From assembly GCA_963699255.1 (NCBI GenBank), contig OY969425.1, forward strand, positions 60,001 through 92,000: DNA of 32,000 nucleotides. Direction: 5' to 3'. The notes under the pieces were generated by a model that saw only the letters and a list, made by a program, of their open reading frames with translations, searched no databases and was not told where the DNA came from. The stretch is from an uncultured bacterium. Lineage in GTDB: Bacteria > Margulisbacteria > WOR-1 > CAVSGV01. The position numbers and the translations under genes are program-made. Below are positions 2,632 through 11,627 of this stretch, piece by piece (within the stretch, counting starts at the first letter, position 1; the number at the start of each line of letters is the position of its first letter).

Positions 2632-2845
2632 CGGGTAACCATGGAACCTGAGACTAAAAGTCTCGGTTCCAAATAGAGTATGAAAATTAACCGCGAATTT
2701 TATTCGCGGGATGTTAGTTAGCTCATCCTAGGGCATAACGGGTAACCATGGAACCTGAGACTAAAAGTCTCGGTTCCAAATAGAGTATGAAAATTAACCG
2801 CGAATTTTATTCGCGGGATTTTAGTTAACTCATCCGAGGGCATAA
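2614..2845. repeat. Tandem direct repeat with a 107-bp unit: two full copies plus an 18-nt third start
   Basis: Units 2614-2720 and 2721-2827 differ at one position (2713 g versus 2820 t). The segment 2828-2845 repeats only the first 18 nt with two changes. Each unit starts with GCTCATCCTAGGGCATAA, the last codons and stop of xerD. Each unit also carries two hairpins, at 2643-2670 and 2691-2709 in unit 1. Confidence 0.9.
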
Positions 2846-7112: not shown

Positions 7113-7254
7113 TATTTCATTTGTTGAACTATTTTTCAGGTGAGAGTTAACATGGTGGAAGCTAATTTGGGCTTATCGGCAAGATCAAAACGCGTTTCTG
7201 CGCTTTAGATATACTATGGCATAGTAATAAGCCAATCAGAAACGCTTGACCTTC

Positions 7255-7302
7255 TTTCTTTGTTACTTTCTTTGTGTCAAGACAAAGAAAGTAAGAAAGA
7301 AA
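7255..7302. repeat. Imperfect 21-bp AT-rich inverted repeat (TTTCTTTnTTACTTTCTTTGT / ACAAAGAAAGTAAGAAAGAAA)
   Basis: Hand pairing of 7255-7275 with 7282-7302 gives 13 bp, one mismatch, then 7 bp, with a 6-nt loop. The right arm is the start motif of the repeated element. Confidence 0.7.
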
Positions 7303-7565
7303 TGCCTTTGTGTTGTTTAGACAAAAAATGATCTTAAATGATCGAGACGAGGGGCTCTGCCCTTACGTAGAAAGTATAGTGGTTCCATTAAGATATCTCT
7401 CTCATCCCGCCCATTTTCTTTCTGCTCCTTCCTTGACTTGCCTACTCCCCCGACACAAGGTCGAGGTCGTACGGCTCAAACAGAAGGCCTAACAATGAAA
7501 CCCCCTCTGTATCTCCCCCTTACTAAGGGGGAGAAGTCTTGCGCGCAAGCGTGAGACAGAGGGGG
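7284..7565 (+). repeat. Repeated structured non-coding element, copy 1 (possible ncRNA or relic of a mobile cassette)
   Basis: 7346-7425 matches 9605-9684 at 77/80. 7431-7550 aligns to 9745-9864 without a net indel. It contains nested hairpins: P1 pairs 7501-7509 with 7557-7565, and an inner TCTCCCCCT-tacta-AGGGGGAGA sits at about 7513-7535. No convincing ORF is present. Confidence 0.75.
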
Positions 7566-7583
7566 TGCAGACTTATTAAGAGG

Positions 7584-7612
7584 TTGACAATGGGATTTTT
7601 GGCTATTAGTAT
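7584..7612 (+). promoter_or_regulatory. Sigma70-like promoter upstream of the DUF5678-like/retropepsin pair
   Basis: TTGACA (7584-7589), N17, TAGTAT (7607-7612). A perfect palindrome GGGTTAACCC at 7635-7644 lies between this promoter and the AGAGGAGA SD. Confidence 0.4.
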
Positions 7613-7723
7613 GACTGCATCGGTCTCGCAAGAGGGGTTAACCCGTTATTCTTTAAGCCATAAATACTGAAATTTATCGCGTAATTTAATGATATATATG
7701 ATGAGAAGAGGAGAATTGATCCG

Positions 7724-7912
7724 ATGGACAACACATTGGTAAAAGATGAAAAATACGGCGGCCGGTTCGTGGCTCTGAAGAGCTTTGACGACAAAACAAT
7801 ACTTGTTGACGGGAAAGATCCGAAAGAAACCCTTGAAAAAGCAGCTCAAAAAGGGTTTAAAAATCCTGTAATATTCTATGTGCCGATAAAAGATATGGTT
7901 CAGATCTACTGA
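7724..7912 (+). CDS. Small DUF5678-like protein (62 aa)
   Basis: EKYGGRFVALKSFDDKTILVDGKDPKETLEKAAQKGFKNPVIFYVP matches my recollection of the DUF5678 pattern (Y.GKWVA...G.VV..G....E..EKA...G..nP.i..VP). The SD is good. The next ATG is 3 nt after its stop. Confidence 0.6.
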   Translation: MDNTLVKDEKYGGRFVALKSFDDKTILVDGKDPKETLEKAAQKGFKNPVIFYVPIKDMVQIY

Positions 7913-7915
7913 CAG

Positions 7916-8320
7916 ATGGGACTTCAGAACAAACCTTTTATTCAGATCGGCTCGGGAAATACTCCAAAACCCTAGCTTCCTATCGTTATAATAAATCCTC
8001 ATACCAAGAAAAGCGTTTCCACTTATGGACTTGTTGACACGGGTGCGGATGAATGCGCCTTGCCCGCTAGTTTTGCCGAAATACTTGGCCATAACCTGCA
8101 ACAAGGAAGCCCCAAGGAAATATCCACGGGGAATGGCATTACGATCGCATATTCGCATACTGTTTCAATTGAAACGGATGGCTTTCATACGGAGGATGTG
8201 TTGATCGATTTTATGCCCAATTTAAGCATTCCATTGTTGGGCGTGAGAAGCTTTTTGAGTAAATTTATTCTAACGATTAACTATAAAGAGCGAACTTTTT
8301 CTCTGCAGCCAAACAACTGA
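7916..8320 (+). CDS. Retropepsin-like aspartic protease with its frame interrupted by an in-frame TAG at 7973-7975 (pseudogene or readthrough)
   Basis: Reading from ATG 7916 gives MGLQNKPFIQIGSGNTPKP*LPIVIINPHTKKSVSTYGLVDTGADECALPASFAEILGH... The catalytic D-T-G-A at 8036-8047 lies upstream of the ORF-track start at 8060. No ATG, GTG or TTG exists between the TAG and the DTG motif. Confidence 0.6.
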
Positions 8321-9398
8321 TAAACTCCGCTTTCAGCCGGGTTTCGGCCCATTCGCCCTCCGCAGTGGAATCCCAGATTATCCCGCCGCCTATTCCCATC
8401 TCGCAACTTTTACCTCGTACAAGTATAGTCCTGATGGGAACATTGAAATACATCCCGCCATCGGGAGATATGTACCCGATCGCCCCCGTGTAAACATTCC
8501 TTTCTTCCTTTTCGATCTCCCTGATGATCTCCATCGCGCGTATCTTCGGCGCGCCGGTGACCGACCCGGAAGGGAAAAGCGCGGACATCAGTCTTGAGAG
8601 CTTGATATCAGGCGGGACTTTAGCGGTGACCGTGGATGTCATCTGGAACAGAGTTTTATATGCCGTTACCTTGAACAGGTCCCGCCACGCGATATTTCTG
8701 CCTATCCTTCCCAGGTCATTCCGCAAAAGATCCGCTATCATTATGTTCTCAGCCCTGTTCTTTCCATCATGGAAGAACCTGCGCTTCTCGATAACATCGG
8801 ATATCGCATTTTTCCCCCTGCGCCACGTGCCTTTCATCGGCTCAGTTAGAATATGCCCGCAGTTTTTCTTTATAAAACGCTCCGGGGAAAGCGACAGGAC
8901 CTGGAATCCTCCCGCGTCGATGTAAGCGGGATAGGGGACAGGCTGGCGGCGTAAAAGCTCTTTGTACAGCGCGTACGGGTCGCCCTGAAGATCGAATTTA
9001 TATTTTACGCAGTATGTTATCTGATAAACATCGCCGTTCGATATGTGCCGGCGGATGAGTCCGATATTGCGGGAGTAATCTTCAAATGAAATATCCGGCC
9101 TTAGATCTTTGATGCCGAAGGTCCCGGGTTTCCTCGATGTTGACTCCTGGCCACAAGCATTTTTATAAACGCCGAAAATAAGAAGTGGGAGATCAGAAGG
9201 GATCGCTGTGTATAATTTTTCTTCAAGGCAATAGCCGGCTTCGTATGAAATGTATCCCGCCAGCCAGTATCCGGCGGCGGAAAGATCCTCCAGCTCCTTC
9301 AGCGCGGAATGAAAATGCTGCGGATCATAACAGGCCACGATCTTTTCCGGATCGCGGAAAAAAAGCGGTTTGTTCTCAAAACTGGCCTGGACTTCCAT
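8277..9398 (-). CDS. pabB: Aminodeoxychorismate synthase component I / chorismate-binding enzyme (PabB-like, short form)
   Basis: Chorismate-binding motifs PSGSVTGAPK and GAIGY are present, along with GIGGGI near the C-terminus. An AAGGAG SD is present. Length is 373 aa. An anthranilate synthase TrpE-type assignment cannot be excluded by eye. Confidence 0.75.
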   Translation of the reverse strand: MEVQASFENKPLFFRDPEKIVACYDPQHFHSALKELEDLSAAGYWLAGYISYEAGYCLEEKLYTAIPSDLPLLIFGVYKNACGQESTSRKPGTFGIKDLRPDISFEDYSRNIGLIRRHISNGDVYQITYCVKYKFDLQGDPYALYKELLRRQPVPYPAYIDAGGFQVLSLSPERFIKKNCGHILTEPMKGTWRRGKNAISDVIEKRRFFHDGKNRAENIMIADLLRNDLGRIGRNIAWRDLFKVTAYKTLFQMTSTVTAKVPPDIKLSRLMSALFPSGSVTGAPKIRAMEIIREIEKEERNVYTGAIGYISPDGGMYFNVPIRTILVRGKSCEMGIGGGIIWDSTAEGEWAETRLKAEFISCLAAEKKFALYS

Positions 9399-9404
9399 GG
9401 ACTT

Positions 9405-9441
9405 ACTCCTTTAAGCCTGGGTGTCCCGGTTAAAGAGGAGT
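9405..9441 (-). promoter_or_regulatory. SD-sequestering hairpin in the pabB leader
   Basis: The minus strand reads ACTCCT-ct-TTAA-ccgggacacccaggc-TTAA-AGGAGT, then aagtcc, then ATG. The 3' arm is the SD of pabB. Confidence 0.4.
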
Positions 9442-9462
9442 GAAGTTCATGGCCCGGACATG

Positions 9463-9471
9463 ATTATATCA
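9463..9471 (-). promoter_or_regulatory. Extended -10 (TGATATAAT) promoter element for pabB
   Basis: The minus strand reads GTGATATAATCATG about 60 nt upstream of the pabB ATG. The -35 is weak. Confidence 0.35.
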
Positions 9472-9540
9472 CTTATAATTCCGGATGTAATTTCTTACCT
9501 TGTGAGCAACTGCTCGAAGCCGCGAGCCTGAAGGAATGTA

Positions 9541-9864
9541 AAAGAAAGTGGAAAGGAAATACCTTTTATGTAAAACAATGCAAAATGAAAACTAAAGTTA
9601 TCGTGACGATGGGCTCTGCCCTTGCGTGGAAAGTATAGTGGTTCCATTAAGATATCTCTCTCATCCCGCCCATTTTCTTTCTGCAGCGAAAGAAAATGGG
9701 GGAAAAGAACGCCGACAGGGGACAAGCCCCCTGTACCCCCACGGCCTTGACTCGCCTTCTCGTCCTCACCAAGCTCGGCCTCGTACGGCTCAGACAGAAG
9801 GCCTAATAATGAAACCCCCTCTGTATCTCCCCCTTACAAAGGGGGAGAAGTTTCGAACGCAAGC
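9541..9864 (+). repeat. Repeated structured non-coding element, copy 2
   Basis: It is homologous to 7284-7550. It carries an extra 60 nt (9685-9744) that completes a perfect 13-bp hairpin at 9669-9700 and adds a 7-bp hairpin at 9715-9734. It lacks the 3' strand of P1 that copy 1 has. Confidence 0.75.
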
Positions 9865-9865
9865 A

Positions 9866-9944
9866 AAAGAAAGTAAGAAGGAAAGGTATTATGTTTTTTT
9901 GAGTTAGAAACATGGAGCGAACTTTTTCTCTACAGCCAAGCAAC
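9866..9944 (+). repeat. Third partial start motif of the element, plus a 30-nt relic of the retropepsin 3' end
   Basis: 9866-9900 (AAAGAAAGTAAGAAGGAAAGG...) resembles 7284-7320. 9915-9944 matches 8288-8317 at 28/30. Confidence 0.7.
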
Positions 9945-9988
9945 ACTAGCCCAATTCTAAGATTATGAAGGCTAGGTGGCCATGATGA

Positions 9989-10837
9989 TTACGAGCATAT
10001 ATAATTAATGATATGCTCCTCTAGGGTCCTTCCGATTTGATATGCGTCATTTCTTTCGATCACTTTTTTCAGAGCTTTTTCATCAAGGCATATTTCATCC
10101 ACGGCTTCAGACGCTGCCATAGCATCATTTTCCACAAGATATTTATAGAAGCTGAACGCCTTTTCAACGCCCAGTGACCGCACTACGGACCTGACGACCG
10201 CCTCGTCATCCTCCGGCAATTTGATCTGAAAAAGGTAGGGCTTGATGAAGAAGCCGGAAAGATCTTCAAGCCCCAGCTCTTTTACCGCTTTCATGATCAC
10301 AAGGTCTCCAAGCTTTACAAGCGATGCCGGGAGCGATGAGCCATATTTCCTGCTGTAATCCAATATGTTCGAGATCATCGGCGCGTCTTCTTTTATAAGC
10401 CATTCCATCCCTGTAAGCGCGTGCCTGAACGTTCTTCTGTCCGTGCCGGCCAGTGTGCCCAGGAAATCGATCGCTCCATCACTGTTATATCTGTAATAGG
10501 CGTGCCACATGCTCTTTGCGCGGTCCGCGCCGAACTCTTCAAATAAAGCGGCCGCTTTCTCCCTGTCCATGGAATGCAACAGCCGGCATTCTCTCGTGTC
10601 AAATGTATATCCTATCGTCAATTTGGGAAGCGTTTCGTTCAAGAATTTCTTTGCCTTATAATATCCGCGCGTTTCCAGGTCGCTTACGATAAAACTTTCT
10701 GTGCCGCAAAAAGGGAGCGACCTTTTTAATCCCCAGAACACCTTATCCGCTTTTCGCGCCCGCATCTTCACGAACCTGCGGACCCCCGCGGCTTTAAGAT
10801 TTGCCTTTATAATGGCGTTAAAAGATAACTCACTCAT
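9989..10837 (-). CDS. Hypothetical protein (282 aa)
   Basis: The ORF is long with an AAGGGGA SD. I recognise no motif. Confidence 0.6.
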   Translation of the reverse strand: MSELSFNAIIKANLKAAGVRRFVKMRARKADKVFWGLKRSLPFCGTESFIVSDLETRGYYKAKKFLNETLPKLTIGYTFDTRECRLLHSMDREKAAALFEEFGADRAKSMWHAYYRYNSDGAIDFLGTLAGTDRRTFRHALTGMEWLIKEDAPMISNILDYSRKYGSSLPASLVKLGDLVIMKAVKELGLEDLSGFFIKPYLFQIKLPEDDEAVVRSVVRSLGVEKAFSFYKYLVENDAMAASEAVDEICLDEKALKKVIERNDAYQIGRTLEEHIINYICS

Positions 10838-10970
10838 CGTTTTTCCCCTTATTCAATGCTTGATCGAGCCGTATATATCTCGTTAAATTCCCCGAAAAAT
10901 CCCAGTATTTTTATAAAATTCTCATGACCCGGAGGCTGGCGGCAGTGGATAAGGGAGCAGGCAAAAGCGG

Positions 10971-11627
10971 TCAGTTCTGCAGGACTATCGCGGATCCGTC
11001 ATGATCGCCGGTGGTCAGCGTTTCGCTTGTGATCATATTGTCCAGAAAGACCTTGCGGGTCATCTTGAGCTCCGTTTTGCTTGTTATCCGGGCGGCGAAT
11101 TCTTCGCGGGCCTTCACGAACGACACATAATCATGCCCGCGCCGGTCCAGCTTCTCCCTGCTGAATGCGCCGGTAAAATAGAACTTCCCTTCGCTCTTAT
11201 ACGGCCCGAAGATCCTCCCGTGGTCGTTCTTGAATTCGGGAGGCCTGTCGGAGAAAGCATAGCGGTTTTTCCTCGGGATCTGCGGGTACAGCGATGTCCC
11301 GATGTATCCCGAATAACCCGATGAATGCCCCCTTCGGGGCTTGAAACCGGCTTCCGCGCAGTACTTGGATATCCTGCCTATGGCTTCTTCAGAGGTCTTT
11401 GACCTGCTGTCTATGATCACCACGTTTATCGGCTCCTTTATTTCTTTTCCATGGAATTTCAGCCCCAGCCAGTTCGCGGGCTTGTTAGAAGGCGTTATCA
11501 TCCATTTGCCGATGACCGGAAGCCCTTTGGGATGCGCCAGGTCGGAAGATGCGGGCTGGTACGCTGCGCCTGCAGCGTAAAAAGCCAGCGCGGCCAGGAA
11601 AATGATCACGATCGATCTCTTTCGCAT
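10971..11627 (-). CDS. Secreted hypothetical protein, possibly an LssY C-terminal-like domain
   Basis: The N-terminal signal peptide is MRKRSIVIIFLAALAFYAAGA. The pattern PINVVIID...AEAGFKP...YAFSDRP...NDHGRIFGP resembles my recollection of LssY_C proteins. Confidence 0.55.
   Translation of the reverse strand: MRKRSIVIIFLAALAFYAAGAAYQPASSDLAHPKGLPVIGKWMITPSNKPANWLGLKFHGKEIKEPINVVIIDSRSKTSEEAIGRISKYCAEAGFKPRRGHSSGYSGYIGTSLYPQIPRKNRYAFSDRPPEFKNDHGRIFGPYKSEGKFYFTGAFSREKLDRRGHDYVSFVKAREEFAARITSKTELKMTRKVFLDNMITSETLTTGDHDGSAIVLQN

Follow-up and report, generated by a model that had tools for sequence, protein, structure and literature searches.

Repeat and cassette debris on either side of pabB, and its probable origin by local duplication

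Genes and repeats on either side of pabB

The window, a 32,000-nucleotide stretch of the genome of an uncultured bacterium, contains two copies of a folded repeat core, a two-gene cassette encoding a DUF5678 protein and a retropepsin-like protease, and, between the two core copies, the gene pabB. The first locus begins with a P-type module (7180–7306). Its 21-bp palindrome (7255–7275 and 7282–7302, an inverted repeat with 95% identity) follows GAAACGCTTGAC, and the module has another small hairpin region. Core copy 1 on the plus strand (7322–7497) is degenerate, with 55 nt containing two hairpins deleted and the 3′ half decayed, and a complete 69-nt nested-hairpin mini-repeat (7498–7566, plus strand) is appended to it. 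The cassette (7583–8320, plus strand), delimited by Pfam matches, a promoter scan and homology boundaries, is self-promoted and consists of the promoter (7584–7612), the DUF5678 gene (7724–7912) and the retropepsin gene (7916–8320). The gene pabB (8277–9398, Pfam PF00425) lies on the minus strand, and the DNA homology with pabB and its leader in relatives extends over about 8323–9475 (BLAST against genome G002). It is followed along the window by an internally deleted core of a divergent subfamily on the minus strand (9478–9563), composed of a module Q and one arm of a GTGG-type P hairpin. The second locus contains the structurally intact core copy 2 (9580–9812, plus strand), a 69-nt mini-repeat truncated after ...GCAAGC (9812–9864, plus strand), and the loop, one arm and extension of a P hairpin (9860–9905, plus strand), which is the usual downstream partner of the core. 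A 30-nt relic of a second retropepsin gene (9915–9944, plus strand) ends 45 nt from the stop codon of a convergent, uncharacterized 282-aa gene that has no Pfam match (9989–10837, minus strand).

The direct repeats described in the initial annotation are real. In a self-comparison of the window, 7322–7425 and 9581–9684 are 88% identical and 7431–7559 and 9745–9873 are 82% identical, both in direct orientation, so that the overall pair is formed by 9581–9864 and 7322–7550. The longest exact runs are 56 nt (7370–7425 and 9629–9684) and 30 nt (7494–7523 and 9808–9837). The repeats bracket pabB, as had been stated, and given the 56-nt exact run, recombination between them that deletes or circularizes 2.3 kb could in principle occur. 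The short start motif that had been noticed for a third time after copy 2 was also confirmed: positions 9866–9885, which hold the AAAGAAAGTAAGAAGG motif, are 88% identical to 7278–7302, and the motif matches its counterpart near genome position 1209650 at 25 of 25 bases.

The relic at 9915–9944 matches the final 30 nt of the retropepsin open reading frame before its stop codon (8288–8317, plus strand) at 28 of 30 positions, as originally reported. Apart from itself, the 771-nt cassette matches only this segment in the 1.77-Mb genome (BLAST E-value 1.5e-5), and a binomial estimate puts the chance of finding 28 or more matching bases out of 30 within 100 nt of copy 2 at about 3e-10. Translated in the retropepsin frame, the relic gives ERTFSLQPSN, compared with ERTFSLQPNN* in the gene; the stop codon is not conserved. 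The second locus thus retains homology to both ends of 7322–8317 and lacks the interior of about 740 bp, which comprises the promoter, the DUF5678 gene and most of the retropepsin gene. A comparison of the 30-nt linker at 9885–9914 with the cassette interior, aimed at marking the endpoints of the deletion, gave no significant similarity, with 64 of 300 shuffles scoring equally high.

The arrangement is reproduced in the independent, short-read Logan assembly of run ERR10755942, the only other sample found in exact-protein look-ups. One of its contigs corresponds to 7508–9658 with a single mismatch at 8267, and a second contig corresponds to 9738–11211 with 100% identity. Because these two contigs reproduce the arrangement, the junctions of the locus are not assembly artefacts. 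Apart from the mismatch at 8267, where the genome has A and the contig C and the retropepsin codon specifies Ile or Leu, there is no sign of variation in the population. No close relative of the source genome was found in any of the collections searched.

The repeat family and its folded core

The core of about 235 nt is present four times in the genome (G000), at genome positions 67320–67500, 69580–69815, 1535398–1535159 and 1210103–1209865, the last two on the minus strand. Within the same family, three further genera (G002, G003 and G004) carry it as well, at 72–88% identity. Copies of the element number four in G000, at least five in G003, at least four in G004, and one or more in each of G001, G002 and G005, and the repeats are limited to this one Omnitrophota family. 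An exact scan of GTDB for the core hairpin found it in G003 and G004 only, and the exact scan of JGI metagenome contigs returned no match.

The initial annotation regarded copy 1 as the full element, and the comparison with other cores reverses this assignment. Copy 1 has an nhmmer score of 130.6 bits and keeps 19 of the 38 consensus pairs, whereas copy 2 has a score of 237.5 bits and keeps 37 of 38. The three copies in the genome other than copy 1 score 217–238 bits, and copy 2 is 85–88% identical to the 1535-kb copy and 86% identical to a copy in G003 (contig C109).

Among the cores of G000 and G002–G004 that were compared, only copies 1 and 2 carry the 69-nt module, at the same point after ...GGCCTAA(C/T)AATGAA. 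The two copies are identical at 81 of 86 positions, including the 56-nt exact stretch, in a region where the other copies vary. Because of this common insertion point and the near-identity in a region that is variable among other copies, copies 1 and 2 are sister copies. Elsewhere in the genome the 69-nt mini-repeat has five full-length copies (at least 66 nt) and several shorter matches, none of which adjoins a core. It has the form AACCCCCTCTGT.TCTCCCCCTTA.TAAGGGGGAGA...GAGACAGAAGGGGTT and constitutes a separate small repeat family, with copies at genome positions 225161, 549458, 553221, 621280, 732795 and others. At the second locus, the truncated 69-nt module and the P arm meet (...GCAAGC|AAAAG) at a CAAGC that is common to both modules, and this suggests a microhomology deletion.

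The P module recurs in the genome near 1209650, at 1534970, at 1546350–1546410 and at 1547460–1547860, while shuffled genomes yield zero or one match. Together with module Q it is found at 1209, 1535, 1546 and 1547 kb, where the Q–P stretches are identified by nhmmer as divergent cores on the opposite strand. The internally deleted core at 9478–9563 has matches of this kind at 1535116–1535082 and 1547718–1547752. In the relatives, the core and the P module share one unit bounded by terminal inverted repeats, with the P module 130–250 nt downstream; beyond the P arm at 9860–9905, such a repeat would be expected but is absent.

Complete units in G001, G003 and G004 consist of a core or a variant of it and a P hairpin, are free of open reading frames, and are bounded by inverted TAATCAACCTTATGT ends. 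Inverted TAATCAACCTTATGT pairs 398–473 bp apart are present in G001 (C1), G003 (C109) and G004 (C13 and C48), where a reversed-pattern control gave zero matches, and outside the family the motif occurs at background level. The ends are absent from the genome studied here, in which all four copies have decayed ends. Units are about 400–470 bp long, with no conserved reading frame, as insertions and deletions differ between copies. In three of the four complete units TA is present on both sides of ATCAACC...GGTTGAT, which can equally be a 2-bp extension of the inverted repeat. In the single clear comparison of a filled and an empty site, the unit in contig C13 of G004 separates two divergent genes, and the orthologues of these genes in G000 (1479757–1480479 and 1480501–1481241) are about 37 nt apart; the filled site also holds extra DNA that does not belong to the repeat.

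The element alone belongs to a MITE-like family. In common with the bacterial MITEs Correia/CREE, RUP, modular BOX and BIME, it is short (400–470 bp), free of open reading frames, multi-copy, intergenic and rich in hairpins; it is bounded by terminal inverted repeats of about 15 bp in G001, G003 and G004 and possibly flanked by TA; it fills a site in one genus that is a short spacer in another; and its modules are shuffled. Unlike those families, it has no autonomous partner or matching transposase among the sequences searched, the copies in this genome have lost their inverted ends, and the conservation of its interior of about 235 nt from genus to genus is unusually high, with compensatory changes in the stems. 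All inverted-repeat pairs found are less than 500 bp apart, so none encloses an autonomous partner with the same ends. The search for a transposase with matching ends found no DDE_3 (IS630-type) gene in G000–G005 and no TnpB gene in G000. As a previously uncharacterized addition to the MITEs, the family is unremarkable except for its structured interior, which is unusually well conserved. It is this description of a MITE-like family within one Omnitrophota family, with an interior that is conserved across genera and has compensatory stem changes, that gives the repeats a modest value.

An origin as REP/RAYT or IS200/IS605-derived palindromes was considered and rejected, since the REPs at the sole Y1_Tnp gene are unrelated to the core, P, Q and 69-nt modules. 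This Y1 (RAYT-like) transposase gene (G000, 1290815–1291165) is flanked by GGAACC...GGTTCC REP hairpins, which have at least 30 further matches in the genome. Two of them are in the window (2638–2672 and 2745–2779), just after a tyrosine recombinase gene (2101–2589), and no evidence ties the tyrosine recombinase to the repeats.

In an alignment of core copies from G000, G002, G003 and G004 (A2), 94% of the cells in the helices of the core are paired. Compensatory changes are present at 13 pairs, compared with 4.8 in shuffled alignments; none of 500 shuffles reached 13, and slid controls gave at most five. G–U pairs account for 2 of 323 cells in the helices. Such a near-absence of G–U pairs despite 13 covarying pairs is unusual for an RNA. 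Because G–U pairs are almost absent, a DNA-level structure or a constraint acting on two strands is as likely as an RNA. Covariance models of Rfam 15 gave no match at the gathering score anywhere in the window; matches at E ≤ 1 were chance microRNA-like hits on the AT-rich palindrome. No tRNA or tmRNA is present in the window. A candidate sigma-54 promoter upstream of the cores was dropped on inspection of the sequence.

The DUF5678/retropepsin cassette

The two cassette proteins are assigned by Pfam to DUF5678 (PF18929) and to retropepsin-like proteases (PF13975/PF13650); the score of the protease against TIGR03698 is below the cut-off. Homology of the cassette to locus L076 and to G004 begins at the TTGACA box (about 7583) and does not continue past the stop codon (8320). 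The pair is kept in 29 other loci, which comprise five other Omnitrophota genomes and 24 metagenome loci, and both genes are present in all 27 loci with enough flanking sequence. Within the phylum, the cassette was found in six of 146 genomes, spread over five families. Its proteins are 88% identical to those of the copy in G004, whereas the two pabB products are only 57% identical. The cassette is horizontally mobile, as seen from this patchy distribution and from the excess of its identity to G004 over that of pabB. Its landing places are gene ends and intergenic spots.

Direct repeats of host sequence bracket the cassette at six of about 23 loci (L078, L097, L083, L031, L034 and L032). Their lengths are 136, 109, 75, 44, 24 and 20–23 nt, with a spacing of 685–1245 bp, and equivalent repeats in shuffled flanks reach at most 12–14 nt. 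At L031 the end of the cassette provides the host gene with a new C-terminal tail, at L032 the first 30 nt or so of the host gene are duplicated, and L083 and L097 each have the cassette in an epimerase-like gene, at its 3′ end.

The retropepsin gene in the window contains an in-frame TAG at 7973–7975, in place of the TGG (Trp in ...KPWLP...) found in all close homologues, and the same TAG is present in the Logan assembly of ERR10755942. Because the TAG precedes the sequence encoding the catalytic DTG, the protease is probably dead. With the deletion at the second locus, neither copy would retain an intact protease gene; this adds an example of the decay of the cassette and would fit a toxin-like role.

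In its genomic behaviour, the DUF5678/retropepsin pair resembles a toxin–antitoxin-like cassette. As in type II toxin–antitoxin systems, a small protein and an enzyme form a strictly conserved pair with its own promoter, the distribution is patchy and shaped by horizontal transfer, and the decay products are similar, in that the enzyme gene has been lost here by a nonsense codon in one copy and a deletion in the other. Unlike type II systems, the pair is known here from its genes, so that the likeness is one of genomic behaviour, and an aspartic protease is, to our knowledge, not an established toxin class for pairs of this type.

Origin of the second locus

The initial annotation proposed that the element and the cassette together form a unit of about 1.05 kb, with the second locus as its internally deleted derivative, and named the co-occurrence of the two ends in other genomes as a test of this. 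None of the element modules (core, P, Q and 69-nt) is present at any of the 29 other DUF5678–retropepsin loci, and about 13 more loci of the element, distributed over this genome and four related genera, have no cassette. Nor was a nearby fragment of the cassette detected at the 24 other cassette loci tested. The element and the cassette are independent of each other. Because the two ends are associated in no other genome, the 1.05-kb stretch is not a mobile unit and the second locus is not its miniature. The part of the earlier interpretation that holds is that of a copied stretch which has lost its middle, as it fits the relationship of the sister copies.

Positions 9541–9944 can be read as a mosaic of three fragments left over from the repeat and the cassette. 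These would be an intact core, a truncated 69-nt mini-repeat joined to one P arm and, ten bases further on, the last 30 nt of a second cassette. On balance, the second locus is probably the debris of a local segmental duplication followed by loss of the interior of the second cassette, and not a miniature mobile element. In the order and mechanism that are inferred as most likely, a stretch of about 1 kb that comprised the core, the 69-nt mini-repeat and the cassette would have been duplicated locally in this lineage, pabB would have ended up between the two copies, and the interior of the downstream cassette copy would then have been deleted. The upstream cassette copy would have been inactivated by the TGG-to-TAG nonsense change, and the upstream core would have decayed. 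Local duplication with loss of the interior explains the collinear order of features at both loci. The relic is identical to the resident cassette at 28 of 30 positions, compared with about 19–21 of 30 for the nearest foreign cassettes (L076 and G004), as counted on the alignment. A loss of the cassette by recombination or deletion, which had been mentioned at the outset as one option, is close to the simplest history given the sister copies and this affinity of the relic.

Some features of the locus call for additional steps. The homology between the loci ends at 8317 and 9944, three bases before the stop codon, and about 50 nt of the second locus (9865–9914, the P arm and linker) have no counterpart at the first. 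Therefore, at least one event beyond the duplication and one deletion is required. The identity along the copy 1 and copy 2 repeat is uneven, with 94% over 7340–7425 and about 77% over 7426–7497, and therefore faster decay of copy 1 or gene conversion is needed. None of the genomes searched shows an intermediate state, such as two complete cassettes or copies that have no pabB between them.

Less probable, and the best-surviving of the alternatives, is a history in which there never was a second cassette, and the 30-nt pair is a long target duplication. A block of about 1.6 kb (8318–9914), containing pabB, the decayed Q/P′ copy, core copy 2, the 69′ fragment and the P″ arm, would have inserted into the 3′ end of a lone retropepsin gene. 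Host direct repeats of 20–136 nt surround the cassette at other loci, beyond the 12–14 nt reached in shuffles, and therefore insertions with tens of bases duplicated do occur in these organisms. Moreover, the 30-nt homology ends at 8317 and the pabB homology starts at 8323, and the frame of the relic continues into a plausible longer C-terminus. However, the frame of the relic runs nine codons past the QP motif, whereas the homologues and copy 1 end zero to four codons past it. The right end of the insert, at 9914, would lie inside a repeat unit at no recognizable end. A separate duplication would still be required to produce the sister pair of core 2 with the 69′ fragment and core 1 with the 69-nt module, and the shared order and orientation of the two loci, with the core before the 30 nt in both, would be left to coincidence.

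It is doubtful that the core of about 235 nt is a selected functional fold of RNA or single-stranded DNA, the latter being named because G–U pairs are nearly absent, and that direct copies of it promote the capture or relocation of the genes between them. The core could then serve, for example, as a guide or recognition module for a putative recombinase, and the genes between the copies would be the toxin–antitoxin-like cassette and pabB.

Two independent acquisitions of the cassette beside repeat copies that were already in place, with the second decaying to 30 nt, are improbable. The cassette is horizontally mobile and lands at gene ends and intergenic spots, and both of its copies are just downstream of a core and 69-nt module, which could mark a preferred landing site. 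However, none of the 29 other cassette loci adjoins this repeat family, the relic is much closer to the resident cassette than to any foreign one, and the cores are sisters, so that the flanks were duplicated in any case.

An autonomous mobile unit of about 1.05 kb with a still mobilizable, MITE-like derivative at the second locus is very improbable, because, even though both ends are retained without the middle and the element alone does belong to a MITE-like family with terminal inverted repeats, the ends are nowhere else associated, neither inverted nor direct terminal repeats were found at 7284/8320 or 9541/9944, the TAATCAACCTTATGT ends that are the real ends of the family enclose the core and P hairpin and not the cassette and are absent from this genome, in the supposedly full copy the core is broken and the protease gene is interrupted by a nonsense codon, and the only open reading frames, as the initial annotation had noted and Pfam confirms, encode the DUF5678 protein and the retropepsin-like protease and no transposase, integrase or reverse transcriptase. 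The combination of element and cassette is thus no MITE.

The reading as a duplication followed by loss of the interior places the locus among ordinary cases of segmental duplication and pseudogenization, with which it shares two collinear paralogous stretches in direct orientation, each independently damaged and one internally deleted, in a region flanked by other accessory genes. Unlike such cases, it has a housekeeping gene between the copies that uses cassette and repeat DNA. The locus is the ordinary decay of a duplicated accessory stretch and not a new type of mobile element; as ordinary genome debris, it does not give grounds for defining one.

The last 14 codons of pabB (ISCLAAEKKFALYS*) are read from the 3′ end of the cassette on the reverse strand (8277–8322), while the protein of G002 ends ...AEFLGQP*. 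The predicted promoter of pabB (9463–9491, minus strand; promoter scan) has its −35 box in the repeat-derived module Q. The housekeeping gene thus appears to co-opt cassette DNA for its C-terminal tail and repeat-derived DNA for its predicted −35 box. It had been considered that the 30 nt might instead be conserved as a C-terminal coding sequence of the pabB type. This is not the case, as retropepsin homologues that have no pabB nearby conserve the 30 nt, and the homology of pabB to its relatives stops at 8323, outside them. A duplicated 3′ end of pabB upstream of the cassette, sought by analogy with other cassette loci, was represented by the 9-mer CCCGTTATT only, which was judged to be a chance match.

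The immediate neighbours of pabB differ between G000, G002 and the pair of G001 and G004. In G002 the order is ruvB, pabB and a lapA-like gene, and the matching site in G000 is a clean junction without pabB. In G001 and G004, pabB adjoins a homologue of G000 positions 301545–303014, and in G001 it is within 15 kb of homologues of two genes from the window. Synteny does not fix the direction in which pabB moved, because G001 is so rearranged. One stretch of G001 (C3, 328001–362000; L051 and L052) mixes homologues of G000 regions at about 66–71 kb, about 298–321 kb, 965 kb and 1770 kb; this points either to extensive rearrangement of gene order in the family or to a chimeric G001 bin.

The leader of pabB (GGCCATGA.CTTCA...ACCCAGGC.TTAA; 9399–9475, minus strand) is conserved in three genera despite the differing gene contexts, with counterparts at positions 9540–9623 of L041 and 1460–1533 of L042. 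Judged by this conservation, it may be a small cis-regulatory RNA.
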